Shown: positions 24,658 through 52,400 of the stretch, piece after piece
How positions within the stretch are numbered: the first letter of the stretch is position 1
Layout of the letters: each line of letters opens with the position of its first letter
IMG/VR virus record: IMGVR_UViG_3300028197_001738
Coordinates: 31,664-95,663 of that record
Length of the DNA: 64,000 nucleotides
Direction: 5' to 3' (one strand)
From: a virus
Program-made: the position numbers and the translations under genes
Notes under the pieces: generated by a model
What the model was told of the DNA's origin: nothing
Seen by the model: only the letters and a program-made list of their open reading frames with translations
Database searches by the model: none

Positions 24658-24671
24658 ATCATTTTTAATTC

Positions 24672-27600
24672 CTATGTAATTGGAGCAGTATTTCTAGCCC
24701 TGTACTTAATAATTACTATGCCGCTTCCTCCGGTGGCTGAAGCTCCTCCTGCTCCTCCAGTATTTGCTGCTCCAGGCGCTCTTCTAGAACCACCTCCGCT
24801 GGATGCTCCTCCTCCACAAGAACCTCCTTCTCCGTCTCCTCCTCCGCCTCCTCCGAATTGATTACTATTTATACATCCATCTGCTATGTCTACGGTTAAA
24901 CCAGCACCACCATTACCTCCTCTTGTCTGACATCCTGAGTTGCAACTGCCCCAACCTGCTCCAGCTCCTCCTCCTCCTCCTATGCCTGCTCCTCCTCCAC
25001 CAGCAATGCAACTGCCGGAACCAAAAGCAGCACCGGTGTAACCCTGAAGACAGCCATCATTATTACTTAGTGGTCCGCCGTATTTTGCACCGTTCAATTC
25101 TATGCAATCACTAGTTCCGTTAGGGTATGTAGTTGGGTCAGCTGCTATTTGAGCTGCTGTTAGAATAATGAGATCATCAGGATTCTTGCCGCAATCATAT
25201 TCTTCTGTTGCTCCCCATGGAGCTTGAATCAAGCCAGCGCCAGGATATCTGCATCCCTGACCACCACCACTTGCTCCTCTACTACCAGGGAAAGCTGTGT
25301 TGCCCCTTAATTCTCCACTTCCACCAAAACCACCACCACGAGCAACCAGCACCCTTTTTTTTACAGCGTCTCCATCAGGCTGATCTCCTGTTTGACTTGT
25401 TGTTTTGTATCTAATTATAACTATTCCGCTTGCTCCGCTAGCCCAAGGACCACCTCCACCCCCACCAGTATTAGGTGTTCCGTTTGTTTGAGCCGTCGCA
25501 CCATACCCTGTTCGACCAGGTTTATAGCTTTGTCCACCACCTCCGCCATTTCCTTCGGCTGGGGTGTTGTTATATTGTCCAGTATAGAACAAACCAGCCC
25601 AGAAGCCTGTTAGACGACCTCCTTGTGCCTCATTGCCTCTACCTCCGCCTCCTACTCCTCTTAGGTAATAAGCGTTGTCTCCTACACCTTGAGGGCTTCC
25701 GCCTCCTCCACCGCCATACCATTGTGTTGTTCCAGATATATCGGTTCCGTATGAAGATCCCCCATCTCCTCCTTTATTATGCCAGGCTGGGCCGCTTCCT
25801 TGAGTTGGGTCCCAAGATAGACTACCTCTTCCGGAGATACCGGCTCCAGTAGCCCCTCCTCCTCCACCGCCCGACACGGTAGAAGAACCAGATTCAGAAT
25901 ATCCTTGAGGACCTCCAGCAAAACCTTCGCCAGAATCTCCTCCTTCATTAGCAGATCCAGGACTACCTCCATTAGCTTCTATAATCAATGAGTTTCCTGA
26001 GATAGATGAATTAGATCCACTTTGCTTATATATGCCTCCATCACCAATAACAATATTATATTGCCCTGTAGATGGGAAAATTATATCTCGTTGATGCTTA
26101 ACACCACCGCTGCCTCCTCCTCCACCAATTAATGATTCATTTGGTGATCTTCCAGCTCCTCCGCCACCCCCAACAACTAGAATATCAAATTTTGCATCAG
26201 CGGGCAAGCTGCCAATGCCGAATGTTCCATTTTGTTTAAAGGTATGTATGGTATATTCTCCAACAGTAGTTTTTTCTCCACCATTAGCAAATATTTCTGT
26301 GTCTGGAGCATCTGGGTCTTGTGGCTCAGGAGCAGCGCCATTATAGAATATACTACTGTTCTTACCCCTAGCTCCAGGGGCTCCGCCATCTCCAACATGT
26401 ATGTCGTAAACTCCAGCTCCATCTGCACCATTTTGATTTAAAGAATAAGATGTTCTTAATGCAGCTCCTCCTGATCCTCCTCCACCAGCAGCTCTATTTA
26501 CTGGGCCGCTTCCGCCGCCTCCACCACCTCCCATTAAGAAGACATCGAAAACAGCGTCATTATCTATAGTATTAATCGTAAAGGTATCATCATTTGTAAA
26601 GATATGAACATTATAATCTCCTTGAGTACACAATGTGCCACCAGTGGCATCGACGTTAGGAACTCTAGCTCTACATACCTGTAGTTCTCCTATCCAATTC
26701 CCTGATGTTGCAGCAACGGACTCCCAAGCATTTGTCACATCGTTCCATGCCCAATGAAATTGAGCTCCAGGATTAGGATAATTTGTTTGATTAACAAACA
26801 ACCCACACTTTGCCATACTATCAATAAGGCAAATTTCTACATTGTTTTCAGCTTCTATTTGTCTGATTTTGTTAATAGTTATTTGATCAAGTCTTACGGT
26901 AGCTGTTCCATTTTGTGTATCTAAACCATATCTAGCAGCAATCTTTTCTGGAGCACAAAAGTACAGAGAAAAACCTGGAGTATGACTTGGTGTCGGTGTT
27001 GGGGTGTGAGTATTAGTTGCCGTAGGAGTTGCTGTAGCCGTAGCAGTAGGAGTTGCTGTTGCTGTAGCTGTGGGAGTAGCTGTTCCTGTTGCTGTTGCTG
27101 TGGCTGTTGCAGTAGGGGTTGCTGTTGCTGTTTCTGTAGCAGTATTAGTCACAGCAGGAGTGTGTGTATTAGTTGGCGTTATACTAGGAGTAGGAGTATT
27201 TGTAGGTGTTTCTGTTTGCGTAGGAGTTGGTGTTTTTGTTGGCGTTCTACTAGCAGTAGCAGTAGGAGTACTAAAAGCTGTTGCTGTGTTCGTTGGAGTA
27301 GGGGTATTACTTGCAGTATTAGACGGAGTAACAGTATTAGTAGGAGTTATAGTAGGAGTGACGCTATTAGTAGGAGTAGGACTAGCTGTAGCCGTTGTAG
27401 TAGGTGTAGCCGTTGTAGTAGTAGTAGGTGTATTAGTTGGGGTTTTAGTTGGTGTGACTGTAGGAGTAGGAGTTGGACATAAGTAAACAGTGTTTTGTGA
27501 ATAAACATCTCCATTAAAGTTATTGGTAGTTATAACTTCAAGCAAAACCAAATTTACATGTTGACTTTTTCTCAATAAAAAAGGAACAGTTTTCTTATTA

Positions 27601-27740
27601 GAATTAGCGGTAAAAGTAACTGTATCTCTATCTATTTCAGCGAATTCATCATAAGTGTTTCTTAGCTTAACCTTAACAGTATATTCATTTCCTACAATAA
27701 GATCTTCTAGATCAATATTTATAATGTCTGTTGTTATCAT
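24672..27740 (-). CDS. Fibre/adhesin: Ig-like N-terminus, Pro/Thr stalk, nested glycine-rich domains
   Basis: About 165 aa of PT/TA repeats; Y.IH.F...VVGGGG.G...GSGIVIIxY glycine-rich domains typical of phage fibres. Confidence 0.75.
26976..27476 (-). repeat. Coding low-complexity Pro/Thr/Ala repeat (mucin-like)
   Basis: [18 protein letters not shown]...[12 protein letters not shown]. Confidence 0.95.
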
Positions 27741-34391: not shown

Positions 34392-36851
34392 CTAACATAC
34401 TCCTCCTGTAAATAATACTAAACCGAAATCCCAATTACCTAATGGATCATCTTCAGGATCATCTTCTTCTATTGGGTTCTCAACTTCTGCCTTAGAAGAC
34501 ATCGCCAAAAATGAATAAGAACTTTGTCCTATACTGTTATAGGCTGAAAGTCGATACAAATATGTAATATCTTCATTAGTTCCTGTAATTGTTTCAAATT
34601 GATTTGTAATTAAATTCTCAGGAGAATTATAGTTAACCCAATTTATACCACCATCTTCCGATTCTTCTATTAGATATCCTAATATAGCACTACCCCCATT
34701 ATGCCCAGGCTCCCAAGACAAATTAATTTCTGATGGACCTCCTGGAGTATCAGAAAAGAATCTGAATCCTGTAAAATTATTTGGATTTTCTGGTAAATCT
34801 GCTGATACAAAAACGGTATCGGTCGCAGCCGTATATTCGCTTATGCCAACACTGTTTTGCGCAGCAATCCTAAATATGTAAGGGGTTAGGACAGACAAGC
34901 CTGTGATAGTAGCAGAAGTTTGATCATTACTTTGTCTTTCGACCAAAACCGGAGTTTGAGGTAGTGTAGTCCATTCATTACCATTATTCGCTGAAAATTG
35001 CACAATATAATTAGTAATGGTTTTGCCACCATTGTTTACGGGAGCATTCCATCCTAAAGAAATTTCTGATCTACCTGCGCTAAAACTTAAATTGGTAGGA
35101 GGACCAGGTTCCGTTGGATTTTCTGTTGCTCTTCTAGATATAATTCGACCCTTATCATTTACTGTCAATAGAGCATTGGTTACATACTCAGATTCTCCAT
35201 CTTCAGTAGGTTCTGGCAATAAATATATTTCTCTAGACATCAAGTAATCTGTGTAACTCACACCAGACACAGTTAAATTAGCATAACTTTCTAATGTTCC
35301 AACGCCGCTAGCAATAGCCGAATAACTATAGGCTCCTGATGTATTAACAAGCACTTTAGCAGACTCATCAAAACCCCAGCCTGTAGGCATTGTTTTTTCT
35401 CTGTCTATATATTTTTCGTAAATTACTCCAGTGGACGGCAATCCACTAACAGCATTTGGTATATGTGCATCTATTTTAAAACTTGGAACAAGTCCACTAG
35501 GAACACCGTTGTCGTTTAAATCAAACAACTCTTTAACATAATTATCATACTCTATAACTCTTCTTCCATAAATATTAAAGTCAATATCTTCAGCAACACT
35601 ATTAAATGATGTATAAAGCTCTGGTCGATTGCTTAAAGTATTTATAGTAGAGGGTTTAAAGGTAAATCTAGAATCTGTCTCATCTGCATCCTCGTTAAAG
35701 AGTACTTCACAGTTAAACCTCGCCTGGGATTTTACTCCTGAGGCCAAAGCCATCTCAAAATAGGAACCTTTCTTTACCGAAAAAGCATAAGATATTCCAG
35801 ATACAGGTAGTGCGGCTCCTGGTGGACAAACATTAATTTTAGTACCACTATAAGGTTCGCCATCAATTGGATCAACCCAGTTTGCAACCTCTGTAATATC
35901 ATCGAATTGGGGTTCTTCTACAAAAATATCATCATCATAAGTAAGGTATCTAACATTATCAGAGAATTTTACAAATGAAACATCTCCATTCTCGTTAACT
36001 AATGCTACTGTATCAGCTATGTCAAATTCTATACCCAGCACTGTATCGTCGGTAAAAGGAGCGACATCTTCAAGAGGTTCGTACCAAGTGGGGTTTTTGT
36101 TATAAAATGCAATAGCTCCATCCATTACAAAAACAGGTCTCATAGGATATCTATTAAATGTTAATCCTTCTGGTAGAAAATCTGGTGGTTGCCAAAGAGC
36201 AGTGATGTCATCTCCTGAACCCATGTGTGTTAGAACCCTGCCTTTATAAAGTTCTATTTCTGGTCCTACTTTAATACCACCTGTTATATGAACTAACTCT
36301 ACATTAAAGTTTACTTGAGGTCCCACCTGTTGAGCATCTTCTCCTTCTCCAACCACTACAGGATTAGAAAATTCAATATGACTATAGGTAGCTAATTCGT
36401 TACTAGGACTTGCTTCGTTACCTCCATCACTAATATATAACAATTGTTGCGTACCATATCCAGAAAAAATTAAACTATCAAGCTCTTCGTTATATATAAT
36501 GCCTGTCGTTGCAGCAAGCTCGTCGTTTCCAGCTTTATAAATTAAACCACTGGCAGCACCTGGGTACAAATCTAAAACTTCTCCAGAGCTATCTATTTTA
36601 TAAATATTTTGAGCATACAAAGAATCTGCTATAAGACCACTGGTTTCTACAAAACCGGGCGTATTTAAGATAATTCCCGATGAGCTAGATATGCCTATAT
36701 AACCTGAGGCAGCAAAAGAAGTAAAACGAGTGCCCCATTGATTTGGAAAATTTACTGTAACAAGTTTGCCCTCACTGTCTCTTTGATTTGGTTTATCATG
36801 AGGAGGAGCTAAAGTAATTGGTACTGGATTATATCTTGAAAAAATACTCAT
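34392..36851 (-). CDS. Tail fibre-like protein with two C-terminal fibronectin type III domains
   Basis: PGPPTNL...LGWNAPVNNGGKTITNYIVQ...YIFRIAAQNSVG and LSWEPGHNGGSAILGY...YRLSAYNSIG. Confidence 0.85.
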   Translation of the reverse strand: MSIFSRYNPVPITLAPPHDKPNQRDSEGKLVTVNFPNQWGTRFTSFAASGYIGISSSSGIILNTPGFVETSGLIADSLYAQNIYKIDSSGEVLDLYPGAASGLIYKAGNDELAATTGIIYNEELDSLIFSGYGTQQLLYISDGGNEASPSNELATYSHIEFSNPVVVGEGEDAQQVGPQVNFNVELVHITGGIKVGPEIELYKGRVLTHMGSGDDITALWQPPDFLPEGLTFNRYPMRPVFVMDGAIAFYNKNPTWYEPLEDVAPFTDDTVLGIEFDIADTVALVNENGDVSFVKFSDNVRYLTYDDDIFVEEPQFDDITEVANWVDPIDGEPYSGTKINVCPPGAALPVSGISYAFSVKKGSYFEMALASGVKSQARFNCEVLFNEDADETDSRFTFKPSTINTLSNRPELYTSFNSVAEDIDFNIYGRRVIEYDNYVKELFDLNDNGVPSGLVPSFKIDAHIPNAVSGLPSTGVIYEKYIDREKTMPTGWGFDESAKVLVNTSGAYSYSAIASGVGTLESYANLTVSGVSYTDYLMSREIYLLPEPTEDGESEYVTNALLTVNDKGRIISRRATENPTEPGPPTNLSFSAGRSEISLGWNAPVNNGGKTITNYIVQFSANNGNEWTTLPQTPVLVERQSNDQTSATITGLSVLTPYIFRIAAQNSVGISEYTAATDTVFVSADLPENPNNFTGFRFFSDTPGGPSEINLSWEPGHNGGSAILGYLIEESEDGGINWVNYNSPENLITNQFETITGTNEDITYLYRLSAYNSIGQSSYSFLAMSSKAEVENPIEEDDPEDDPLGNWDFGLVLFTGGVC

Positions 36852-36866
36852 TTATTAAAACTCCTG

Positions 36867-39800
36867 TTAACAGAATGGTGGGCAGGGCACGTCGACTGCT
36901 CCACCTCCACCGGTATCATCTTCGTCACAATTTAAACAATTATCACAAACACCAGCAACTTGATCATAATCAAAACAACAATTACTTTGACAGCAAAAGT
37001 CTGAAGAGGCTACGCAAAAACCATCACTACCACAAACTTCACAGAAGAAACAATCGGTATTAGCAGTACATGCTTCTGTTCCGGGTATCAATTCTCTTCT
37101 TGGTAGAGGAGAAGAAGCTTGGGGATTATCTCCAACTATTAAGCGATCCGTATAAAGCCAGCCACTCACGCTAACCGTGGCATATAATGAACCATCGGTA
37201 TATTCAACAACTTCGTACGGATCAGGTCTCCTGAACATAGAAGAGGAAATACCTGTCCCCACACTACTAGCACTAGGCTCAAAATACGCAGCTTTATGCC
37301 ATTGATTTATACTAGGAATCCAATATTTTCTGTATCTCTTTTTAGCTATAACATAACTATTCTCAGAATTGTCATTAGGCATAACGTCATAAGCGCCAGT
37401 ATCTATGGTTACATCTACATCTGCATCAGCGACTCCCGTAGGAGCTCCATTGTGCAACCAATTGGTGAATCTTACAGCGCTAATAAAGCTTACAAAATTT
37501 ACTGGTTTTTCAGCCATATGTTCTTTAACAGTATAATCAAAATCTACATCGGAAGCCATAAGCGATATCTGCTGAATACCTCCGATTACTTCACTATACA
37601 TTCTTGAATCATATAAATCCCTATCATTTTCTCTAGCTACTGCCTGTAAGAATTCTACATATTGAGAATTAGTAATCTCATATTTACCCATTCGATAAAA
37701 ATTATCAACCACACCTAGTCCATCAAGAGATACTAAAGAATAACTATCGCCGTCTTTAAGATATAAGTTAGTGTTATCTTCAACATTATTAGAATCAATG
37801 ACTGTAACAAAATCTAAATTCAAAGTATTCGCAATAAAAGACTCGTCTTCCATGTTATATGCAGAAGCTATTCTAAAGCCTACTCTGTCGTAAGCTCCAG
37901 ACCTGTCAATAAATTCTATACTTCGTAATCCTGTTGGACTAATAGTACCACTGTTTGGCGTAAACGCAGAACCACCAGCTACTGTCTCTTGATGATCTCT
38001 CATTTCTAATATGTCTTTTTCAACCCATTCAGCTACATTACCATTTTGATCATAGGTTCCATAATAAGAAGACACTCCGTTAGTTCCGACATTTGAAAGT
38101 ATTCCACTAAATGTATGAAGTTTTGTGTCAGGACTACTGGCATTATAACCATAATTAGCAGATGAATATAGATTACTTAATCCTTCTCCGCTAGCATTAA
38201 TAATCATTGGGAAAATACTTGAGTTACAATCTCTTGTGGCAAAAATATTATAATTACCAGATTCGTAAACAACCTGATCGCTGAAAGCTTTAATTTTAAA
38301 TGCTGGGTTTTCTTCTGTCCCATAAACAATAAAATCTATATTCTTTTTTTCTGTATTAAATTCGGTAGTGACATTAGGTCTAATACTTAAAATAATATTA
38401 GAGTTATCTGGAATTGCCCCTTCCGCAATTTTTCGACTTATAGATAAATAACCTCCTTGGCTTGTTGAAAATACATTATACGTTGATTGTACAGTATTTA
38501 CATTTTGGTCTAATAGCATAGAGGTAATAAGACTATTTTCAGAATATATCTCTAAAATAAATCTGTAATCAAGAGACCCATCAGCATTTTCAATAGATAT
38601 TTGATCATTAACACTAAATTCATTAATTGGAATAGGGTCTGCTTCTATAGCAGTTATCTGTCTTTTACAAATAGAAACTTGTCTCTTCTTATGTTTATTC
38701 CATAGTATATCTGCATCTGTTCTAAAATAATCATCTATGCCATAAGAGCCACTTAAAATACCATTTTCTGTGGTTGTAATAAATTGACCAGAAGGAATAT
38801 TAGAAAAACTAAGTGTTTGATTTTGATTCAAAATAACTCCTGTAGACGCGACGACATCATTATTATCGTCGACCACAAGTAAACTACTAGGAGATATATT
38901 GGGAATATTTATATTAGATGATTGAATATTAGTTATATTCGCTGTTCCCTGTATTGTTACAGTAGAAGTTCCACTACCCAATGTTACATTATTAGAAGCT
39001 ATATTGGATGTTGTACTATTAACTATAAAAGAAGATCCTGTATTAAATGTACTAGATGTTGTGTCTACAGAAAGTCCAGTAGAGTCTAAAGTTATATCAT
39101 TACCACTAGATCCTATAGTAGTAGAATTGTCTCTATCAAAAACTAAGCTATTTAAACCACTATAACCTACCGTAATATTGTTTATATCAGCACTTAGTGC
39201 GCTGACATCAGAAAAGCCAGAAGCAAAAACAAGATCTAGATGTCCTAGTTCTGAGCCATAACTATTATTAATTGCAAAAGCTTGTATTTTTACAAAATCT
39301 GTTTTATTACCTACAGAATTTTTAGCAGATAGATTGAGTTGGGATATTTGAGTATTGTTTGATAAAGCGGTAGTTGGTTTATGGTATAGGGTTACATTTG
39401 CTGGATGACATACGCTTCTATTTTCTAATCTAAAACCTTCTTGACATAGAGTATTAACAACATGGAATATGGTCGTTGGTCTGGAGCCTGAAGGTATATT
39501 TAAACCTAATTTACCATCATATGTAAAAAATAAATTTTTAGGATTAGCACCAGTACCAGATCCGTAAACAATAAAGTCTGAAGATTGTCTATCATTATTG
39601 AAAACAACCGAATCTGCTCCGCTAGTAGGTATGATAGTATGAGCCTGCTCACTATTATCTGCTCCAAGTAGTAGATCTCCATTTCCAGAACCTATATAAA
39701 ATTCTCCACCCTGAAAACCGTTTGCTCCATCATTGTATTGGAAGGAATAAGGATTTCCATTAGAGTCACTCATAGAACTAAACTGATTGTCTTCATTAAG

Positions 39801-40421
39801 ATTAAGTTTAGCAATAGAGTCTTCTAGATTAGCTGTATTGACGACATACCATTTGTCTTTATAGATTAATCTAACATAATCTTTATAGTTAGATAATACT
39901 AATATTACATGCCCATTACCTTCTCTTACTGTAACATTATTAGAGCCTTCAATAATTTTTACATCAATTTCTAATCCACTAAGAGGCTCTGGGGGTAATA
40001 CAAGATCTATGTTTTGATGAGTTGTATCTGCTAAATAAGTAGATTTTTGATTGTATGCTGCGATAGATTTATCGAGAAGTATTGTGTTGGAAAATGCAGT
40101 GTCAAAATTACGCTGATTGGCAAATAGATAAAATTCTGTTTTAGGATTATCGGGAAATGTAACAGGATTATTATTACTAGAAGAAGAAACAACATCTTTC
40201 CTACTAACTACAACATTACCATTAGAATCAAATTCTACAACACCGACGCCAGCCTCCCACAAACCACTATCAACTAATCTTGCAATATAAGGAATACTGT
40301 ATCCTATATGAGATTTATCTAAAAAATGGAAAGTAGATATTTTTTTGTCCTGATGAAACTGATTATTTTTTAACTTAAACCTAAAACCTATATTATCAAA
40401 AATTTTCAGTATTGTATTCAT
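36867..40421 (-). CDS. Tail fibre/receptor-binding protein with circularly permuted FGE-sulfatase (CLec-fold) domain and Cys-rich tail
   Basis: WEAGVG...VSR..VVSSS phage fibre N-domain; YDQNGNVAEW...GGS...VGFRIAS precedes FVTV...KYEITNSQY...KPVNFVS...WHKAAY. Confidence 0.8.
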   Translation of the reverse strand: MNTILKIFDNIGFRFKLKNNQFHQDKKISTFHFLDKSHIGYSIPYIARLVDSGLWEAGVGVVEFDSNGNVVVSRKDVVSSSSNNNPVTFPDNPKTEFYLFANQRNFDTAFSNTILLDKSIAAYNQKSTYLADTTHQNIDLVLPPEPLSGLEIDVKIIEGSNNVTVREGNGHVILVLSNYKDYVRLIYKDKWYVVNTANLEDSIAKLNLNEDNQFSSMSDSNGNPYSFQYNDGANGFQGGEFYIGSGNGDLLLGADNSEQAHTIIPTSGADSVVFNNDRQSSDFIVYGSGTGANPKNLFFTYDGKLGLNIPSGSRPTTIFHVVNTLCQEGFRLENRSVCHPANVTLYHKPTTALSNNTQISQLNLSAKNSVGNKTDFVKIQAFAINNSYGSELGHLDLVFASGFSDVSALSADINNITVGYSGLNSLVFDRDNSTTIGSSGNDITLDSTGLSVDTTSSTFNTGSSFIVNSTTSNIASNNVTLGSGTSTVTIQGTANITNIQSSNINIPNISPSSLLVVDDNNDVVASTGVILNQNQTLSFSNIPSGQFITTTENGILSGSYGIDDYFRTDADILWNKHKKRQVSICKRQITAIEADPIPINEFSVNDQISIENADGSLDYRFILEIYSENSLITSMLLDQNVNTVQSTYNVFSTSQGGYLSISRKIAEGAIPDNSNIILSIRPNVTTEFNTEKKNIDFIVYGTEENPAFKIKAFSDQVVYESGNYNIFATRDCNSSIFPMIINASGEGLSNLYSSANYGYNASSPDTKLHTFSGILSNVGTNGVSSYYGTYDQNGNVAEWVEKDILEMRDHQETVAGGSAFTPNSGTISPTGLRSIEFIDRSGAYDRVGFRIASAYNMEDESFIANTLNLDFVTVIDSNNVEDNTNLYLKDGDSYSLVSLDGLGVVDNFYRMGKYEITNSQYVEFLQAVARENDRDLYDSRMYSEVIGGIQQISLMASDVDFDYTVKEHMAEKPVNFVSFISAVRFTNWLHNGAPTGVADADVDVTIDTGAYDVMPNDNSENSYVIAKKRYRKYWIPSINQWHKAAYFEPSASSVGTGISSSMFRRPDPYEVVEYTDGSLYATVSVSGWLYTDRLIVGDNPQASSPLPRRELIPGTEACTANTDCFFCEVCGSDGFCVASSDFCCQSNCCFDYDQVAGVCDNCLNCDEDDTGGGGAVDVPCPPFC

Positions 40422-40436
40422 TATAGTCTCTTAGCC

Positions 40437-43400
40437 TTACGGGTTAACGTCAAAGTTCATGGTGTCCTGTAGTGATGGGTTATTATCACGGAATGTATTA
40501 AAAGCTCCTTTTATGCCGTCTGTAACTAGTGTCGCTAAATCTGGCTTCAAGCTATTTAATGCTGCATCTCCATTAATAATCACATTCACCTCATGTTTTC
40601 CGGTAATTTTAATCTCTTGTGGAATGTCCAAACTGCTTAATGTAGACGCTATTCGGTCTAATCTCGACACAAATTGATCTATACTGCTAACGGCACTTTC
40701 AATACTACTAGATACACCGCCAGCATCTCCTGTTTGTCTATCTAATCCATTTAATGCGGATTCTATAGCTGAAGTGATCTTACTTGTAAATCGGCCAATA
40801 ACATTATTGATAAATCTGGATGCGTCAAAGGTAGGCTGTGAATTACTTGGTCCTACCTGAGCCCCATTTCTGTAATAATTTGGCAAAGCTAGGCCACCAC
40901 CCTGTAGATATGATGCGATTCCTCCAACAGAATATTCTCCACTATTAATAGCCCTTAAAACACCAAGATGTTTTTGTGTAGATTCTCTATTAACAACAAA
41001 TTCTCCAGGAGTCAACATTGCTGGTACAGTATCTGTTCCCTTTGGCTGGAAATTAATATGAGAACCAGAGCTAGCATATATGGGCCCACCAGAACGTCTA
41101 TATTGTGATTGGTTACTATTTGCTAGTATCTCCGAAAGATCTGCTTGTGCCCCAGCAGTGATCGCTTCAGCAGAAGCTCTTGTCAGTTCTACTAAACTCT
41201 TGGCTAATTGAGCAGAAGCGTGCAAGCCTTCAGCTCTGTTTGATTCTGCTACAATGTTTGGAGATCTTTGTTGCGACTGTAGATTTTTAAGAACAGTTTG
41301 TCCGAGTGAACTTTTATTGAAATTGTTATATTCTATACCTTTAATTGAGTTATAATCATTATTAGCCGTAACTAAAGCATCTCTTTGTATTTTTTGGACT
41401 CTATTAAGATCGATATCGCTTTTAAATCCTTTGGTCCTTTTTCCTAGGTTTGATGAAGCACCTAAGTAAGTGTCGCCAGCTAGATTTTTAAATAAATCAG
41501 AATAAGCATCGTCTCTATCAAACAAACTCTTCAATAAACCATTTTTATCCTCTTGTGTTTTAGGAATAGATGTCATACTAGAATCAACAATAGCACCACC
41601 ATAAGAATCCATTATTTGTCTCAGTGTTTTATCTTTTAATGTGTCTGATAAAAATAGATTATTTGCTAACCACTGAGACAATCCTCCTCCACTAGCTTCT
41701 GCTTTTATCGTTCCTATTTCGTTAAGTGGTGTGTTCATTGGAACACTAGATCCACTTTCAGATAATCTTTTTATATCAAAAGATCTTAATGATACGTTTC
41801 CTTGTTGCACTTCGGCCATTTCATTTTGTAAAGCGTTGCTTTGAGCATACAAAGCCTGTGTATTTCTTTTTAGTACAAGTGATGAAGCAATTAATGCTGA
41901 TATAGGACCTGGTACACCAGCGCTAGTAAGATTATATGTAGTATTAGCCATTTCACCCAAGTCACCAGCCATAGCTCCCAAAATTGAGCTATCAAATACT
42001 TCATTACCCCTTAAGCCACTTGCCTCAGCATTTCCAAGCAATGCTTGCTCTAGAAAATCACCACCAGACACTTTGCCTTCCGCAACTTTTTTCGCCGCTA
42101 AAGCGCCATCAATAAGCAGACGCCCTCTTGCAAGATATTTTTCGTATGCTTTAAATTGAGTTGCGGAGTCGCCTAATCCTTGCATTGATTTTAGACTATA
42201 GAAAAGGCCAGCTATCTCTTTGAGCGAAGAAACTCCATAAGCTGCCGATTTTCCAAAATAATCACTTGAATTATATAAACCTTCCGATGATGAACTAGAA
42301 TTTGCAAATTCGTCTATACCATGTTGTAATTTGTCGACCATGGCAAAAATATTACCAAAGAAAACCAAAGCATTACCAGCACCTTTTATTGGGTATGGTA
42401 TATTTCCTGATCTTTCTCCAACTGATTGTGCTATTTTTTCTGCTCCTCTTAATTGAACAAAATCCAAAGCAGATCTCGTACCTGACTCATAAAAAGAAGA
42501 TGGTATTAAACTGGCAAAATCACCAGTAGCTTTACCAGAATAACCAAGTCCTTTTTCCACATCACCTTCACTAAAAGCTTCAATAGCTTTTACTATGCCT
42601 GTCGCTCCTTTTGTAAATGGCGTAACCATATCTCCACCAGCCAGATAAACCACTCCACCATCTTGATAGCCTTTACTACCACCGCTATTAATTTGTTTAA
42701 GCAAAGGTAGATTGTTTTGTGTTGCTTGTCTGTTTACGACAAACTCCCCAGGAGTTAACATAGCAGGAACAGTATCTGTGCCTCTTGGTTGGAAATTAAT
42801 TAATCTTCCTTCATTAGCATATATCATACCTCCAGTTGCTTTATTAACAGGATTTTCTGCTTCATCTTTAAGGAATTTTTCCAGGCTCTTATCATTAGAT
42901 GATGTATAAAGAGAACCATATCTTCCAGCAGTTAATTTCCTATGAGCGCCTGCAGCAAATTCAGAAGCTATATTTGTTGTCTTAGCTATTTCTTCAGGAC
43001 TGTTTGAGTTATCTAATATATCGTCGGAACTCAGAGATGAATTAATAAGCTTGTCGAAGTTTTCAAAATATTTTTGTATAGAATTTGGATTACCTACAAG
43101 AGCCTCTTTAGTAGAAGCAATAAAATCTGGAGTGTATACTTGCTGGCCATTGTTTATTCTGTTTTCAAAGAAATATGATAACTCATCAAGATATTTACTT
43201 CTTGTTGAAGGACCAGGAAAAATATTAGTAGGAGTTAAAACTCTTTTGAATAAAGTTTGATAATCATTAGGAGCGCTCTTATCTGGAGTTATTTCTGTTC
43301 TACTGCCATCTGCACCAATTTCATAATACCGACCACCTTTAAAATCGTTTGTAACCTCTTTTGTTAAATCGTCAGACAAATCAGCTGATCCACCTAGACG

Positions 43401-46400
43401 TTTAGCTCTTATAATATTAACTTCTTTAGACAATGCGCTATCTATAAAATTATTAAAACCCTGTTCTCCTTCCGCTGTCAATTTATCATAGTATAAAGTT
43501 TTTTCTCTGCCTCTAAGGTTAGGATCAGCAACCTTTACAGCAGAACTCAGATCGGTAGCTTTTTTCATATCTCCTGGAAGGAGACCCAAGGTTTGTGTTG
43601 TGCTAACACCTCGCACACCCCCGACGGTAGTATATAAACGACGTAGAGCTTCTAGTTCGATACCTTTATTATTTTTAGGATCGTCTATTGCTCCTATTTC
43701 TGAATTCAATTTACTTCGCATGCTGTTAATATCTGAAAGACTTTCTGGCATAATCCCAGTTGTTTGATCTTGTTTTTCTATGAATCTAGCCATAGTAACT
43801 CTCAAAGCGTCTGTAAGATCACTATCTAGGTCTTCAGCTACTCCTAATGCAGACCCTCCTGTGCTACCTGTCTTGTCTTTTAGGTATTTTTGTACTGCTT
43901 TTACATAGTCGGTAGATGGTTCATAAGCACCACTTGTTAAACTGTCTTTAATATAAGCAAAATTCTTAGCTTTCTCATTCAGTCCCAACTGAGACAGACT
44001 AGACGGATCAGCTTTATTAATATATCCAGCATCATCAAATGCAATGTCTGTATCGGACCAGGTGTCTGGATCTCCGCTATTTTTAAAAGCACCAAATCCC
44101 ATACTCATTACGCTGCGATAAGCTTTTAAATCGTCTAAATTAGAAAATTCTGCCAAATGTGTATTTGCATACACAGGACTTTTATTATAAAAAGGACCTA
44201 AAGGTGGTTGTTTGTAGGGATCTACCGTATACATTTTATCAGATATGTCTTCAATAAAATCTGATTCTCTTCTGTCATAATATTTACCAGAAACTTCATT
44301 GTATTTTATCGGAACGGTTGTTGCATCTGCACTATCTCCCAATGTTTTTGTTTTTACTTTAATAGCAGATTCCGATGGCGGCGGTAGGGAACTAGCTTCT
44401 GGACCAAAATGCTTAAAGAAAAATGGTAACTCTAGATCAATATCTTCTTCGCTATTGGTAGCCTTATAGAAATCTAGAGAGCTTCCAAAACCCTGTTTTG
44501 ACCAGTCACTATAACGCTCATATGGTTTAGCAATATCTTTATAATATGTGTCAAATATATTTTTAACTTCAGGAGCAGCTTTTTGCCTAGGCGAACTTCC
44601 CTCGGCATACAAACTAATAGGAAAAAATGTATCATTAAGATCATCTACTCCGAATGGTGCAAATTGAAGATTCTTGAAATCTTCTGAACTTATCGTAGCA
44701 TAGTTTCTTGTTCCTTCATATAGTCCTTTAATTTTTTGTTGAATAAGTGTTAATTGTTTACCTTTTTCAGTTAATCCTAAAAAATTGTCATTAGATAAGT
44801 CAGTACTATATCTAGACAACTGATCTTCTGTATTCTCAATATATTTTATAATCAGATCTGTAGGACTTTCAATCCGACCACTATAAGAACCAATAAGACT
44901 CTGATCTTTATAGGCCACCTTTGCAGCATTGCCAAGAAGTTGAGGATTTTCGGCGTTTTTACCAATTCCTAAACCACCATCAGAAGCCCCTAATGTCTTT
45001 ATAGCTCCTTGTTTATCAAAAAGACCCAAATTTTGTGGACCACCGTCTAGACTTTGACCCAAGCCCCCTATGCTTAAAGATAAATTAGAGCTTCCAGTCT
45101 TCGGTGCAGATATGCTATAATCGAATGAAGATCCAAAACTTTTTTGTGCATTTTGTTTAAAGTCTTCTGAACTAGAAATTATACCCTCTGTAATTGATGC
45201 TTTAAGATTAGATAATCTTTCAACATTATCGCCCAATACTTGTTGAGCATGGTCTTTATCTTCTTTATTAATATAGTCTGATGACTCTATAATTTTATTT
45301 GTAGTGGCGTCACTTAAATAATAACTTTTTGCAAACTCTTTCGCCTCAATACCTTCTGTAATATTTGTTGGTTGCGTGTTTTTTGCTCGACCGGTTCGAA
45401 TTCCACCAGATCTATTAATAACTATCTTTAAATTTTCAAATCCTTTACCAGGAGAAAAATTATAATTACTCAAATCTCCATCAAGATTTGGCATTCGAAC
45501 ATTAGCAAAATCACCACTTATTTGTGACGACATTGGTTCATCATTGTTTTCATCCCCCATGGCGTTCTTCATCTGTTTGAAAATTCCTTTTACACCAACA
45601 CTAAGTTCTTTTGCGGGGCCGTAAAAAACGCGATTAACTCGTGCCGTATATAATTGTTTCTCATTAAAATCAGGCAATAAATCTGAGTCGTTGACACTAC
45701 CTCCCGGTAATTGCTTATAAGGATATTGATTATCACTCATGCCTTTATTTTCATCAATACTTTTTCTTACTCCTAAACTTCTTTCTCTTAAGTCAGCAAC
45801 TGGAGGATCGTTCGCATAAAAGCCAGATCCAACGAAACCACCAGATTCATAATAAGAAGTATTGCCATCATTAATAGATTTCAACATACCTAAATTTTTA
45901 GATGTTGCCTGTCTGTTTACTACAAACTCACCAGGAGTAAGCATAGCTGGTACGGTGTCCGTGCCTTTAGGTTTGAAAATCTGTGAGCCACCAGCTGCAT
46001 ATATAATGCCTCCATCTGATTTACCTTGAATACGAATATCTAAAGCACCAGGAAGATCCCGAATTCCTGCACTTATCTCTGTTAATTGTTTAGTAATATA
46101 ATTTTCAACAATGTTTTGGAAGCCATTTAGGAGATCTGTGGTTCCCTTTTGTTCTGAAGCAGACAACTCTTGTTTTATTCCTGCTAGAATCACATTAGCA
46201 TCAGCTTGCTTCTGCACTGCTTCTTTGTAAATACTTATTGTCTCCGCCATTTCGCTGTCTGATTCTGGATCTCTTAATGCGTCTAATATATTTTGCAAAT
46301 TAGAGTCCAGAGGAACATTAGCTTCTTTAAGCATAGATCCCAATACATTAGCCCTAAATTCATTTTGAGTTCTTCCTGTGCCTAAAAGAGGAGCTATACT

Positions 46401-49400
46401 ATTAAATAATTGTAGTCTTTCCGATCTGCTTTGTGCATTAGATCTACCAACCGTATTTCCTGCTAAATTCTCTGACAGCTCACCTAATCTTCTGAATGTT
46501 TTATTAATATCTCCAGCAGAAGAAGTTGATAATTTTTCTAAGAAAGATGTTCCAGCACTAATTCTGCCTTGTATCTCATTAATTCTAGATAAAGCAGACG
46601 AAGCCACTTCTGAATTGCTTGCCAACTCTTGTAATGCTGCATAATTTTGTCTAAGCTGGATAGCTGTTTCTGCTGCTGCTTCCCTAACCTCTCTTAAAGC
46701 TTCAGAAGAGGTTGCTCCATTTTCAGCAAGAGACCTTGCGAAATCTTCTTCTGCTTTTCTTCTTTTTTCTAAATTTAAAATGTTCTGACCTATATTAGCA
46801 GGAGCTGTGCTTCCTGCTCCTCCTCCTACCGATGTAAGATCTGTAATAGTCTGGGTAAATGCATTAATCTTAGATCGAAGAATACCTTCGTTTTTAAATG
46901 CTTCACTTAAACTAATAATTCCCTTGTTTTGTATATTTGCTGCTTTAGATATTAATTGAGTATACTCTACTTGCAATTGTATCTGTCTGTTCATTGATTC
47001 CGTATAAGAATTAACAGTATTTTGCCAAGCCTCTAAAGATTTTACTGCTGACTCTTGAGCTGCTCTTGCTGCATCTACTTGTTTACTCAAGGATGGCAGG
47101 GCTTCTATAAGTTCTTGTGCCGTAATTCTACCGTCTCCTCTAGTAGAAATTTGTTGAATTTGGCTTCTAACTTGTTTAAGAGTTAATTCTTCAACATTTT
47201 GTGGTAATTCAAGATCTCTAATAGATTGTATCGCAGCTTTTTCTATAGCAGCTGTTAGCGCTTTATCACTAGCTCCAGGATTTTCGCTTATGGCTGAGTT
47301 TATAGCCTGATTCATAGAATCTTCTAAATTTGTTATTAAATCTAACAAAGGTCTAATTGCTTGCTGATCCAAACCGAATGAACTAGAGGCCATATCTCTA
47401 GCACCACGAACTTGGTCGTCAGAATAAGCTCTAGGGTTTCTTAAAGTATCAATTGATTCTAAATTAATATTTCCTAATTTAGCCTGCCCAGACAAAGCAG
47501 CAGTAGTTAAATCTAAATTAGTTGCTGATAGTTTAGAAGCAAAATCAAACCTACTAACTATTTGATTTAAACTAGTGTTTAATCGACTTAAACTACTAAC
47601 CATTTGATTAACTTGTTTATTAAGTCTATCAAATTCTATTTGTCTCATAGCCACATTAAATTCTCTTTGAGCTATGGTTGAAGCAGTAATAAATTGTAAA
47701 TTATTTACTCTTGCATTCTTCTCATCGTCAGTTAAATCTATGTTACTCTTTATTTGTTCTATTTCTCGTTGAACAGCAACGTCTGTAGCAGCTAAACTAG
47801 TAGCCAAACTACTAGCAGCGTCTGATGTTCCTAGTAAAGCCTGAAAATCATCAGCAGATTCAAATTCTCCAGACTTAATTAAGGAAGGCAGAGACTGTAA
47901 TAAAGGATTAATAACTTTCGACGCAGCATTAGAGGTTTCTATAGCAATCTGAGGTATTATGTCATTAAACATGAATTCCTGTCTATTCTCATCAGATGCA
48001 CCACGGAAAAGAACTGCATTAGCTGATTGAGCGAAAGCTAATTCTCCTAATCTATTCTTAATAAGATTTAATTCTTCACCTCTTCTATCAGCACCGAATG
48101 CCTGATTTACAAACCTATTCCCAACATTAAGAAATCCTTCTGGTGATTGTCTGTCTAATGATACCTGTCTGTTACTTAATTCTGATGCTTCTTGAACTTC
48201 TCTCACAAAAGCTTCACTGTTATTAATGTTCTTAAGATTTTTTTCAAGTTGACTTAATCTGTTACTGAGGCTGTCTAATGCTGTAGTTAGTCTTCTGTTA
48301 TTGAGAGTCTTAATCCACTCATAGTAAGCATTAGATGTAGCTTTTAAAACCTGAACACCTGCTACTAAAAATTTACCGTATCCAAATAAAGCATCTGTTG
48401 CCTTCAAAACACCTTTAGTAAAACCTTCGGGCAATTTAAATTTATCTGCTATCTTAGGTAGTAACGATTCTAGCTGTGGTCTTGCTGTTCTAGTGTACTG
48501 ATCTGTTGTTTTAGATATAATAGCAACAGAAGTACTTAAAGATCTAACAAATGCACCAACAACTTTACTAGCGCCACCAATATCTCCTAGTAATTGTGAC
48601 ACAACACCACCAGCAATGCCAATACTTAAAGCAAACCTATTGGCTTGTCTTTGAGATTCTGCATCAGCCTTGGTTTTCTTTTGAGTAGCAATAGCAGAGT
48701 CTTTATCTGCTTTTTCTTTAATTTTTTGCCCAGGATTAGCTTGAAATAACACATTGGGTGTTGCCTGTGGTCTACCTTGAGTAATATCAACACTAGCAAG
48801 ATCAGATCTAGTAATAGCTTGTTTAATACCCTGTATTACATCCTTAATATCTGCATCAAATCTACCTCTTACAGACCCTGCTCCAGTTTCTTGGATCAGA
48901 CTACCTCCTTTTGCTATTCCTGATTGTGTAGCTAAATTGCGTGCTACTGCCAAGCTTTCAGATGGAGATTTACCACTTTGTCTCAAACCTTCAAACGCCT
49001 CAGATTTTGTTGACTTTGCTGCTTCAAGCATTTCTGCTTTAACAAATTCTATAGCAGCAGCTAGATCTCCTGCAGATTTACGTGTAGCTTCTGTTATGTC
49101 TTCAACACTTGATGGAGCAGGAGCTACTGGGGAGGACTGTTGAATAGAATCCATATTTACAAAATCGCTCATGTCTCCAGAAAGTCTTCTTGATCTAGAT
49201 TCTGTAACAGCAGGATTAGCAGCTAACTCTGCTGCATTAAACCCTGGGTCTGATTTAATTTGACTTCTCTCTATATCTTCAGCAACTCTTTTACCAGCAT
49301 TAAGCATATTTCTTATTGTATCAACTAATTCTGGAGCACCAGATATGGTCTGAGTCATAGTCTTATTCAAAGTACCCATAATGTTTTGAACAGACCCTGA

Positions 49401-52400
49401 AACTTCTCCTGCTGCAAACTCTGTCTGCTTTAAGAATAACGCAGAAGCTTTTCGTAAGTCGTCTGGCATCTCAAACAGAGCTTTAAGCATAGCATTGGTT
49501 ATTTGTTGAATTTGCTCGGCGGTTACTTCTCCACCAACCTCAAACTTTGCTACGCCTCCTACCATTCCTCCCTTATTGTATCCTTGAATTTTATCAGCTT
49601 TATTTAATTTGTTTAATTTTGCTGCTCCTAGTTTTGAAGCAGCTTTTTTATTTATAACGAACTCACCAGGAGTTAACAGTGCTGGTACTGTGTCTTCGAC
49701 TGACCCACCATTAGCAAACTGCGACATATATTGTGTGGTAGGAGCTTTTGTATATGCATACTGTAATGGTAAAGCTGCTCCTGTCCACGTAGAAGGATCT
49801 TCACTAGGATAGTCTTGTTCTTTAAAATAAGAACCAGTATACATATTCTCTGAAGGCACCAAGGACTTACCAACAGAAGCGCCATCTTGACCTGCTCCTT
49901 TATTAAAATAGTTAGTCCAAATTCTAGTTAAAGAGGCACTACTAACTCTACTTCTGTCAGAAGTTAAACTGCCTCCATTAGCTGTTGCCGTTTCCATAAC
50001 AGCATCATATAAAGATCTCCCTCCTCCACCAGAAACTTGTGCTGATGTGGCTGCATATAATCCATTTCCAATATTATTTGCAACTACATCGCCTGTGCTT
50101 TTTCCTTGAGTGAAATATGCACTAATAGCAGATCCCGCATCTGTAACCCCAATATCTTTTCTAATAGCACTTTCTGCTATAGCAGCTTCACCACCGTCTT
50201 TAAATTTTGTAAAAAAGTCAGATTGTAAACCAGACTCAGCAAAAATCTCCTTTAGTAAAGCTTCAGCTTGTTTGTTCTTACTGCTCTTATAACTTTGAAG
50301 CATCATAGGAACAGCTTCTCCTCTCATTTGAGAAGATAATAATTGTTTTTTGTTTTTGTCATCTTCAAGTGGGTACTCGGACGCAAAAACATCTTCAGCG
50401 GAATAGCCGAGATCTTTGGTATTGTTGATAAAGTCAGAAATTTCAGCTTCTCTATTTATTACAGCGCTATCTAGTTTAGAACTAATATCTGGATAGTTTT
50501 GTAATAAATAAGATTGAACATCATGAAAACCTTCATGAGCAATAATATCGTCTCGATGTTTATCAAAAACCGCCAACCATCTTTTCTGATTAGAACCCGC
50601 ATCGCCAAGAGAGCTTGAAGCTTTTTGTTCTGTGTCTGGATTTAAACCCTGTTGACTTATAAATGCATCTAAATCTTTTGTAAAATCTGGAAAATAAGCA
50701 CCACGACTACCTCCCAGTAGTCTATAAAGTATTCCTCTCCAATTAAAATTAGCATTTTTAGGAGCTTCCCATTCTTGACCATCTTTGGTCATTAGCTTGT
50801 CACCCTGAAACATTTCTGAAGGCAGAACAGCTTTTAATAAGTCATTATAAACTTTGCCTGTATTACCAGAAATGGCTCCTCCAAAAAATTTCTTTTGAGC
50901 TTTCTCTTCAAAATATCTAGTAAACTCACCTCTTGCTCTTTTTAAAGAATCTTTATTAATAATCCTTTTAACTTCTGTTGGCATTCCACTATCAATTCCT
51001 GGAAAATATTGTGAAGCAGCACCTAGTCCATTAGGATAATCTATGGCTCTGTTCTGCTCTGCTCCAGGAGGTAAAGGAGCTCCTAAAAGAGCCATGGTTC
51101 TTTCTATTATGGCTCCTTCTATATTTCCTTGACCTGTTAGCTCTTCTAGCTTTGTGGTGGGTGTTGAGGGCTCTTGATATCTATAAGCAGCTTTTCCAGA
51201 ACCTAAAACAGCTGTAACATTTGACAAGCTGTCATCAATCAGTTTTTCTGCCGCTGACATATTTTGAGCTTTAAGCTCAGGAACATTTGTTGTATTAGGA
51301 GTTTGGGAAACACCTGTTACAGAAGATGTCTCGTAAGGCAGACCGAATCTTTGAAGTGTATCTGCTACTAAATCTGCAGTTAATTGAGGACGAGCAGTTA
51401 AAACCCTTGTATTATTACGAATATAACCAGGAGATTGTTTTTCAAGCTCTAAAAGCTTACTAACTATAGGAGTTGGTCTAGCTCCACGAAGAGCTTCTGC
51501 AACGCGATCTCTATTATAGTATTGAGGAATATCTTCTTTACCTTCAGAATCTAGAATAGCTGTGTTAGAAGCTAAAGTTTCATCAAAATCAAAAGCTATA
51601 GGTCTTACTGGTCCTATTTGATTAGGATCTGAACCCTGAAAAATATTTGCATTCTCTAAATCATTAGCAAAACTAACAGCAGAATCTTTTGTTGCTGCCT
51701 GCATTTTATTAACTGATTCTTTATATCTTTCTCCCAATCCACGAGATTTAATATTTACTTTAGTATTAGCTAAATCATAAACTTTATCTTTATTATATCC
51801 GATAGGTAGTAAGCCAACAATACCAACCTGCTCTTCAAAATCTGTTGCTTGTGATCTCAAAACATTGTCAAGAGTAGTAGTTCTTGCTTGTAAAGCTTGA
51901 TTCATAATCTCTGTAGCTTGATCTAGATTAGAACCAATATTATTAGATCTCAGAACGCTATCTAATGTTCTATCTCCCTTTGATAATCCTAAAATTTGTT
52001 TAACTGACTGTATACCTCCCAAAGAACCTATTTGGTCCTTGATAACATCTTCAACGGACATAGATTTTTGATCAGCTATATCTTGAACCATACCGCCTTC
52101 TAAGAATTTTTGAACCATTCCTCCAGAGTTATAATAACAATCAGCTTTAGGTCTACCTCTTCTTTCAAAAGGTATATCACTAGGAGAAAAATTGCCCCTG
52201 TCTACTGCAACAGCTTTTTCGATGATGCTTCTGCGATTAGGATAAGTATCACTAAGTTTAACATCAGTTAAATCACTAATAGGCTGGTCTGTTAAACCTT
52301 TAATCGTCTGGTTGGCAACAGGTATATCAAATCTGTCTGTTCCAGGATCTTGTAAATCAGCAGCGGCGAAAACGAAACCTTCAAAAAGTTTTCCTGCAGC

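Follow-up and report, generated by a model that had tools for sequence, protein, structure and literature searches.

We analyzed a 64,000-nucleotide stretch of virus DNA (the window), which corresponds to bases 31664-95663 of a linear 95.7-kb IMG/VR virus record with a completeness of 66% (CheckV). One gene in the window encodes P0001, a protein of 1184 residues that contains an FGE-sulfatase/C-type-lectin-like domain whose halves are translated in the reverse of their usual order. Weighing all of the evidence below, we consider it likely that P0001 is a tail-fibre-like protein with a complete, noncatalytic, circularly permuted domain of this type inserted into one of its loops, and that this domain, most likely a ligand-binding one, has been shuffled among proteins without the help of a diversity-generating retroelement (DGR).

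Order and completeness of the FGE-sulfatase domain

Residues ~750 to 1059 of P0001 make up a complete FGE-sulfatase/C-type-lectin-like domain in which the usual C-terminal half (C-half) comes before the usual N-terminal half (N-half). The parts of the domain are as follows.

37860..38174, minus strand: half 1 of the permuted domain (the usual C-half, SANY...GNVAEW...GGS...GFRIAS), residues 750 to 854, from hhalign and structure matches
37809..37859, minus strand: linker from the old C-terminus to the old N-terminus, residues 855 to 871, unaligned to the normal-order profile
37245..37808, minus strand: half 2 of the permuted domain (the usual N-half, LDFVTV...KYEITNSQY...KPVNFVS...NWLHNG...WHKAAY), residues 872 to 1059, from Pfam and hhalign

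A first-pass annotation, made from the letters of the window alone, had proposed a circular permutation from the order of these motifs. All of them were found on the minus strand where it had placed them, including SANYGY (38162-38145), GTYDQNGNVAEW (38060-38025), and VGFRIAS (37883-37863) and, for the second half, LDFVTV (37817-37800) and WHKAAY (37301-37284). Against the Pfam family PF03781, P0001 scored 34.8 bits, which passes the gathering cutoff of 23.3. Profile positions 35-124 aligned to residues 907 to 1047, and positions 163-223 aligned to residues ~773 to 820 (E = 0.04 on their own and E = 0.003 in a six-frame search). Because positions 163-223 precede positions 35-124 in the protein, the C-terminal half of the profile is read first, and P0001 gives no collinear match of N-half followed by C-half.

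To compare whole domains, we built hidden Markov models for each half and classified every relative by the order of its halves. A profile of 279 swapped-order units, with that of P0001 as the first, was then aligned by hhalign to one built from 84 normal-order units of bacterial genomes. In the native order, the two profiles gave two matches that are not collinear: columns 125-312 of the permuted profile matched columns 1-182 of the normal-order profile (E = 5.8e-65), and columns 3-107 matched columns 199-302 (E = 5.4e-21). Swapping the halves in silico produced a single collinear match, from 1-289 to 7-302 of 305 columns (E = 1e-83). Since this one match covers columns 7-302 of 305, the whole domain is present and nothing in it is duplicated. 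P0001 thus has the same domain in a rotated order, with the old termini joined by a short linker (~17 residues), and these data confirm the circular permutation of the FGE-sulfatase domain.

Residues 750 to 1059 contain no cysteine. The catalytic Cys pair of FGE is therefore absent, as had been reported at first pass, and the domain is not an enzyme. In NCBIfam, P0001 matched GldK and EgtB below threshold only. Searches of the PDB by sequence gave a chance match only when phmmer was run with the region and weak FGE-fold matches, limited to the C-half, when the family profile was used.

An AlphaFold model of residues 660 to 1110 was confident (predicted local distance difference test [pLDDT], 87.4; predicted template modeling score [pTM], 0.77), and its confidence extended to the 17-residue linker, part of which was modeled as a short helix (fragment residues 202-207; pLDDT, ~96). 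The top matches in structure searches with this fragment were FGE-fold proteins, each of which covered one half only. Model residues 196-391 matched the N-halves of CarF (5aoh; Z = 5.5), TvpA (2y3c; Z = 5.4), PvdO (5hha), and PorK (9p6h and 9mzu; Z = 4.4-4.5), with Z scores of 4.2-5.5 overall. Model residues 62-203 matched the C-halves of human FGE (1y1g, residues 240-374), 6muj (residues 175-310), and OvsA (8ux5, residues 331-449), as well as those of pFGE, TaqVP, and Mtd (Z = 2.3-4.5). None of 48,161 PDB cluster representatives matched the whole permuted domain collinearly, and Foldseek returned weak, partial FGE matches (best E = 0.19), as expected for a permutant. Taken with the model, the sequence comparisons suggest a chain that would start in the loop normally linking the halves, pass through the usual C-half, cross the old termini by way of the ~17-residue linker, and finish with the usual N-half.

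Distribution and ancestry of the swapped order

The same reversed order was found elsewhere in this phage. Two neighboring genes of the record, upstream of the window, encode further swapped-order domains.

G000:C1:6249-11612 (L011), outside the window: two more swapped-order FGE domains in neighboring genes, each on a long Pro/Thr-rich stalk

In P0123 (537 residues), the C-half starts at residue 8 and the stalk follows the domain; P0124 (1239 residues) has a swapped domain, a Pro/Thr stalk, and a DUF285 region. One of these upstream paralogues thus has a DUF285 region, and it also has a polyproline tail end. The paralogues scored 68.2 and 57.0 bits against PF03781, with reversed order in both, and bring the number of swapped-order copies in this phage to three. 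Four complete relatives (197-244 kb) carry three to four copies each, with the C-half first wherever both halves were detected.

A search of 1.84 billion representative proteins gave 6470 matches, 831 of them with E <= 1e-30. Viral contigs gave nothing in a single-protein scan and gave matches in an alignment-based scan. Half orders are listed below, where A is the usual C-terminal half and B the usual N-terminal half.

Top 150 representative proteins: swapped order, AB 35, ABAB 35, ABABAB 5; normal order, BA 3, BABA 49, BABABA 10, BABABABA 2
Open reading frames (ORFs) of IMG/VR viral loci: swapped order, AB 57, ABAB 10; normal order, BA 19
ORFs of GTDB species-representative genome loci: swapped order, AB 3; normal order, BA 79

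We rejected the three swapped-order cases from GTDB as cellular sequences, as all of them lie on phage-like contigs. One is on a 141-kb contig that has an ORF for a 3349-residue tape measure protein 14 kb away, and the other two are on contigs of 3.8 kb and 5.0 kb whose bin contains four or more tape-measure fragments. Within the scope of our searches, the swapped-order domain was thus found only on phage-like contigs, and all 79 complete units in bona fide cellular loci have the normal order.

Tandem normal-order arrays are common in relatives (49 two-unit and 10 three-unit arrays in the top 150), and a permuted query would align across the junctions within such arrays. P0001 could then be read as two degenerate tandem domains of normal order that remain recognizable only at the end of the first and at the start of the second. 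The spacing of the units speaks against this. The halves of a swapped-order unit lie a median of 9 residues apart (118 units), whereas successive units are separated by a median of 138, and the first unit begins no more than 15 residues from the N-terminus in 40 of the 73 proteins that carry only swapped-order units. Short gaps within units, long gaps between them, and N-terminal starts together exclude misread tandem arrays. P0123, whose C-half begins almost at the start of the protein and is followed past the domain by a stalk, fits the same pattern. In P0001 itself, what precedes residue 750 and what follows residue 1059 align to a module of the neighboring protein P0002 (described below), not to FGE halves, and the half-swapped profile leaves nothing over. 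We therefore regard two degenerate tandem domains as an extremely improbable account of P0001.

The first-pass annotation had also suggested that permutation is what allows the domain to sit in the middle of a fibre. As a requirement, this idea was not supported: most swapped copies are N-terminal, in tandem, or arranged as beads on stalks, and a domain of normal order could also sit in a loop, because its old termini are adjacent (median 9-residue bridge).

The nearest normal-order domains come largely from Planctomycetota (32) and Verrucomicrobiota (27), which account for 59 of 80 genome loci. The resemblance to Planctomycetota/Verrucomicrobiota (PVC) bacteria that had been noticed at first pass is therefore real, and by sequence the ancestry of the domain may be PVC-like. 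The PVC host that had been read from it is less well founded. Identity to PVC domains is 26-43%, and the PVC loci have a GC content of 43-69% (median, 60% in Planctomycetota and 56% in Verrucomicrobiota) versus 35% for the phage (related viral loci: median, 35%); both the low identity and the GC gap weaken the inference of a PVC host.

A tree of 315 units contains a branch with 147 normal-order units on one side and, on the other, all 152 swapped-order units together with 16 of normal order. A single clade of all swapped-order units was not rejected (approximately unbiased [AU] test, P = 0.555), and a single origin of the permuted form is possible. Tandem relatives of normal order, in arrays of two, three, and four units, are among the closest representatives and are plausible precursors of the permutant, which is a matter of plausibility, not of history. 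Most likely, the permuted form would have arisen from such tandem domains by loss of the outer halves. It may have done so once, and then have moved, as a module, between the proteins of uncultured phages.

The tail protein and its insertion site

P0001 and its surroundings in the window are as follows.

36867..40421, minus strand: P0001 gene (ORF), 1184-residue tail-fibre-like protein, immediately downstream of the tape measure gene
40437..54698, minus strand: gene for a tape measure protein of 4753 residues, immediately upstream of the P0001 gene (Pfam PF10145, PhageMin_Tail, E = 5e-20)
34392..36851, minus strand: P0002 gene, 819 residues, next downstream, with two fn3 domains at the end of the protein
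39831..40109, minus strand: predicted attachment domain of the CBA120 TSP4 XD/T4 baseplate gp10 type, P0001 residues ~105 to 197, from the full-length AlphaFold (AF2) model
38244..38912, minus strand: N-terminal part of the host module, P0001 residues 504 to 726, with the IDFIVYG and FKIKA motifs, from hhalign to the P0002 family
37137..37241, minus strand: C-terminal part of the host module (ATVSVSGWLYTD), P0001 residues 1061 to 1095, from hhalign to P0002 residues 500 to 538
35238..36473, minus strand: uninterrupted paralogous module, P0002 residues 127 to 538, from hhalign of the P0001 and P0002 families

In the full-length model of P0001 (1184 residues; pLDDT, 70.8; pTM, 0.37), residues 105 to 197 matched the XD domains of CBA120 TSP4 (7rej_B; Z = 10.6; root mean square deviation [RMSD], 2.1 over 86 residues). 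Further structural matches of this region (VIA) were T4 (5iv5_AC; Z = 8.6) and the KP1 baseplate (9f4a/9f4b; Z = 9.3-9.4). The matches listed for the full-length model included no Dit structure. Because the gene follows a tape measure gene and its product has a predicted TSP4/T4-gp10-type attachment domain, P0001 appears tail-fibre-like, as it had been called at first pass, and it is reasonable to view it as a baseplate-attached protein of a large marine phage. Near-identical DNA for the P0001 gene is present in marine or seawater metagenomes of at least 11 studies. The gene is covered by contigs of four independent marine runs, which excludes an assembly artefact as the source of the arrangement in P0001. 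More than 100 orthologues of P0001 were found, on phage contigs of up to 247 kb, and the domain arrangement is conserved among them. A tblastn search of a phage GenBank collection with P0001 gave no match, and PHROGs held no informative family for P0001 or for ten neighboring proteins.

The ~335-residue insert that carries the permuted domain would sit in a loop of one repeated, β-rich module of P0001. That the domain is an insertion had been proposed from the likeness of its flanks to the neighboring fibre, P0002. Pairwise, the similarity of the flanks to P0002 is weak (E = 0.004 and 0.56). At the level of families, hhalign aligned the N-terminal flank (P0001 residues 504 to 726) to P0002 residues 127 to 479 with a probability of 98.9% (E = 2e-17), and the short C-terminal flank follows it in both proteins. 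Between the flanks there are ~335 extra residues in P0001 versus ~20 in P0002. The insert is thereby bounded at residues ~727 to 1060, limits that can be used for expressing the module and testing its ligand.

A search with residues 1 to 700 of P0001 retrieved distant orthologues that lack the domain. In P0303, residues 1 to 688 correspond to P0001 residues 5 to 721, and residues 708 to 725 correspond to 1081 to 1098; in P0304, residues 2 to 692 correspond to 1 to 712, and residues 723 to 746 correspond to 1080 to 1103. Both proteins are without either domain half: ~335-360 residues are missing, and the flanks lie ~20-30 residues apart. P0305, P0306, and P0307 (862-863 residues; contigs of up to 248 kb) are distantly related to the N-terminal 700 residues of P0001 and carry neither half of the FGE domain. 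They are about as long as P0001 would be without its insert and may represent an ancestral, insert-free form. In a structural comparison, the two flanks of the insert jointly matched 47 consecutive residues of a Bdellovibrio fibre (8ond_B; Z = 3.9; RMSD, 2.0 over 44 residues), which fits flanks that are adjacent in space. Relative to P0002 and to the domain-less orthologues, the domain in P0001 is most parsimoniously explained as an insertion.

Nearly all detected orthologues carry the domain, and an indel by itself gives no direction; the domain could thus be ancestral to the module and have been deleted from P0002, P0303, and P0304. Such a history would take at least two to three independent, precise deletions (in P0002 and the distant orthologues) against one insertion. 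In addition, the domain is demonstrably mobile as a module: genomes carry three to four copies of it, in different proteins. We therefore consider ancestral presence followed by deletion unlikely, and favor insertion in P0001.

Several other features of these tail genes were observed. P0001 and P0002 (34392-40421, minus strand) are separate here, and many relatives have one fused protein of ~1810-1830 residues, a split/fusion polymorphism of the tail protein. The final 67 residues of P0001 (36870-37070, minus strand) contain ~17 cysteines (CTANTDCFFCEVCGSDGFCV...), a stretch that the fused relatives lack. A motif made up of FN, 4-5 residues, and DF.VYG or DF.IYG occurs three times on the minus strand, at 39558-39617 and 38319-38390 (P0001 residues 269 to 288 and 678 to 701) and at 35565-35636 (P0002 residues 406 to 429); the tail protein seems to consist of repeated modules. 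The length of the tape measure protein, 4753 residues, implies a very long tail or many embedded cargo domains. Finally, in the region 24000-27740, GC content peaks at 45.5% at positions 24001-26000 (~35% overall), inside a 1022-residue ORF with a Gly_rich_2 domain (PF21722).

Diversification, predicted binding, and known systems

Among DGR targets, FGE-type lectin folds form the largest class (PMC5758913), and the first-pass annotation had suggested that the domain is such a target. In P0001, few parts of the domain vary as much across orthologues as the stretch from GGS to GFR (entropy of 2.4 bits at residues 820 to 829), as would suit a DGR variable protein whose residues ~800 to 850 are rewritten from a template repeat. 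The parts of such a system were absent, however. No RVT_1 reverse transcriptase was found in the 95.7-kb record (66% complete) or in four relatives of 100% CheckV completeness, and the record contains no template repeat for 37850-38170, only motifs of 14-33 nucleotides in common with the paralogues. Among assembled contigs, the variation seen did not have the expected character either. Differences between the window and contigs of the four marine runs were mostly scattered transitions, many of them spaced at multiples of three; only one of the 40 best-supported differences (46 more exist) fell within 37863-37980, and the contigs, which drop rare variants, had no coding-strand adenine bias. Overall, the entropy of the domain across orthologues does not exceed that found elsewhere in P0001. 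DGR targeting of this domain is accordingly very unlikely, and most likely it diversifies by ordinary divergence and module shuffling. In DGR targets of normal order, the variable region is at a free C-terminus (PMC5758913). It is possible that moving the chain ends frees the binding face equivalent to that region.

By analogy with TvpA and other nonenzymatic FGE-type lectin folds, the P0001 domain most likely would bind a surface glycan or another ligand during adsorption. TvpA-type domains have a nonenzymatic binding role (PMC5758913). The domain might instead be structural, an assembly or oligomerization element of the tail tip that resembles the FGE fold in PorK/GldK rings, for PorK is among the matches to the N-half, P0001 matches GldK weakly, and nearly all orthologues have kept the domain. 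Its absence from P0303 and P0304, however, means that it is dispensable for assembly of the tail protein, and elsewhere the module is found on flexible Pro/Thr stalks and in tandem arrays, which is typical of displayed binding heads. A structural role thus seems improbable to us, and ligand binding remains the function that we favor.

Several observations weigh against our overall interpretation. The structural Z scores of the individual halves are modest, and the packing of both halves as one domain is predicted from the pLDDT and pTM values together with the profile result. The hhalign match of the C-terminal flank (P0001 residues 1061 to 1095 with P0002 residues 500 to 538) is weak, with E = 3e-4 and a probability of 39%, and is collinear with that of the N-terminal flank. 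Whether the indel reflects insertion here or loss in P0303, P0304, and P0002 is judged by parsimony. Free trees need 6-8 changes between permuted and normal order. FGE folds can be purely structural, as in PorK/GldK, and the binding function proposed for the P0001 domain is an analogy.

FGE-type lectin folds are a classic scaffold for massive sequence variation in binding proteins of phages and bacteria, and a widespread natural circular permutant shows that the fold can be rewired. Of this permutant, standard domain models detect only one half (PF03781 positions 35-124 in P0001), which means that such binding heads are under-annotated in viromes. The locus also offers a clean case of natural domain insertion, with a filled site, an empty paralogue adjoining it, and empty orthologues; what is new about it is a nested insertion for which both kinds of empty site are preserved. 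A broader proposal, which we make only tentatively, is that the swapped domain is a single phage-specific invention: a PVC-type lectin fold was rewired once, it is now among the commonest displayed binding modules of large uncultured aquatic phages, and this locus captures its insertion alongside an empty paralogue and orthologues. If this is true, one rewiring moved the chain ends off the old termini and made the domain usable as a head at the N-terminus, as a bead in tandem, or as an insert within a loop.

A 2021 survey found no domains of the FGE/C-type-lectin type in jumbo phages (PMC7824862), and we found no description of a permuted FGE or C-type-lectin fold in open-access papers or bioRxiv. 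The FGE permutation is common in uncultured phages and, apparently, had not been described.

Among known proteins, the FGE enzymes (human SUMF1, 1y1g, and bacterial 6muj) and EgtB, OvoA, PvdO, and CarF resemble the P0001 domain through PF03781 and through structural matches half by half. P0001 differs from these enzymes in that it has no catalytic Cys pair, is circularly permuted, and belongs to a phage tail protein. Its closest cellular relatives are a subfamily of Planctomycetota and Verrucomicrobiota with GTYDQNGN and WHKAAY motifs. Units of this subfamily share its conserved motifs and align to it collinearly over their full length once the halves are swapped but, unlike P0001, have the normal order. 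TvpA (Treponema denticola variable protein 1, 2y3c), TaqVP (5vf4), and Mtd (1yu0) share its fold family, are noncatalytic, and are thought to bind ligands. TvpA matches the N-half of P0001, whereas TaqVP and Mtd match the C-half, where their variable region lies. In all three, the order is normal and the variable region, at the free C-terminus, is rewritten by a DGR; in P0001, the order is swapped, no DGR was found, and the equivalent of the variable region falls in the first half of a domain nested within a module. For the architecture of the whole protein, a parallel is provided by the "evolved Dit" proteins of siphophages that infect lactic acid bacteria, in which carbohydrate-binding modules are inserted in distal tail/baseplate proteins. 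The insert of P0001 has an FGE/C-type-lectin fold rather than the β-sandwich of a carbohydrate-binding module, and its host protein has a TSP4/gp10-type domain rather than a recognizable Dit fold. In both cases, however, a binding module (a predicted one in P0001) occupies a loop of a tail-tip protein whose gene comes directly after that of the tape measure protein.

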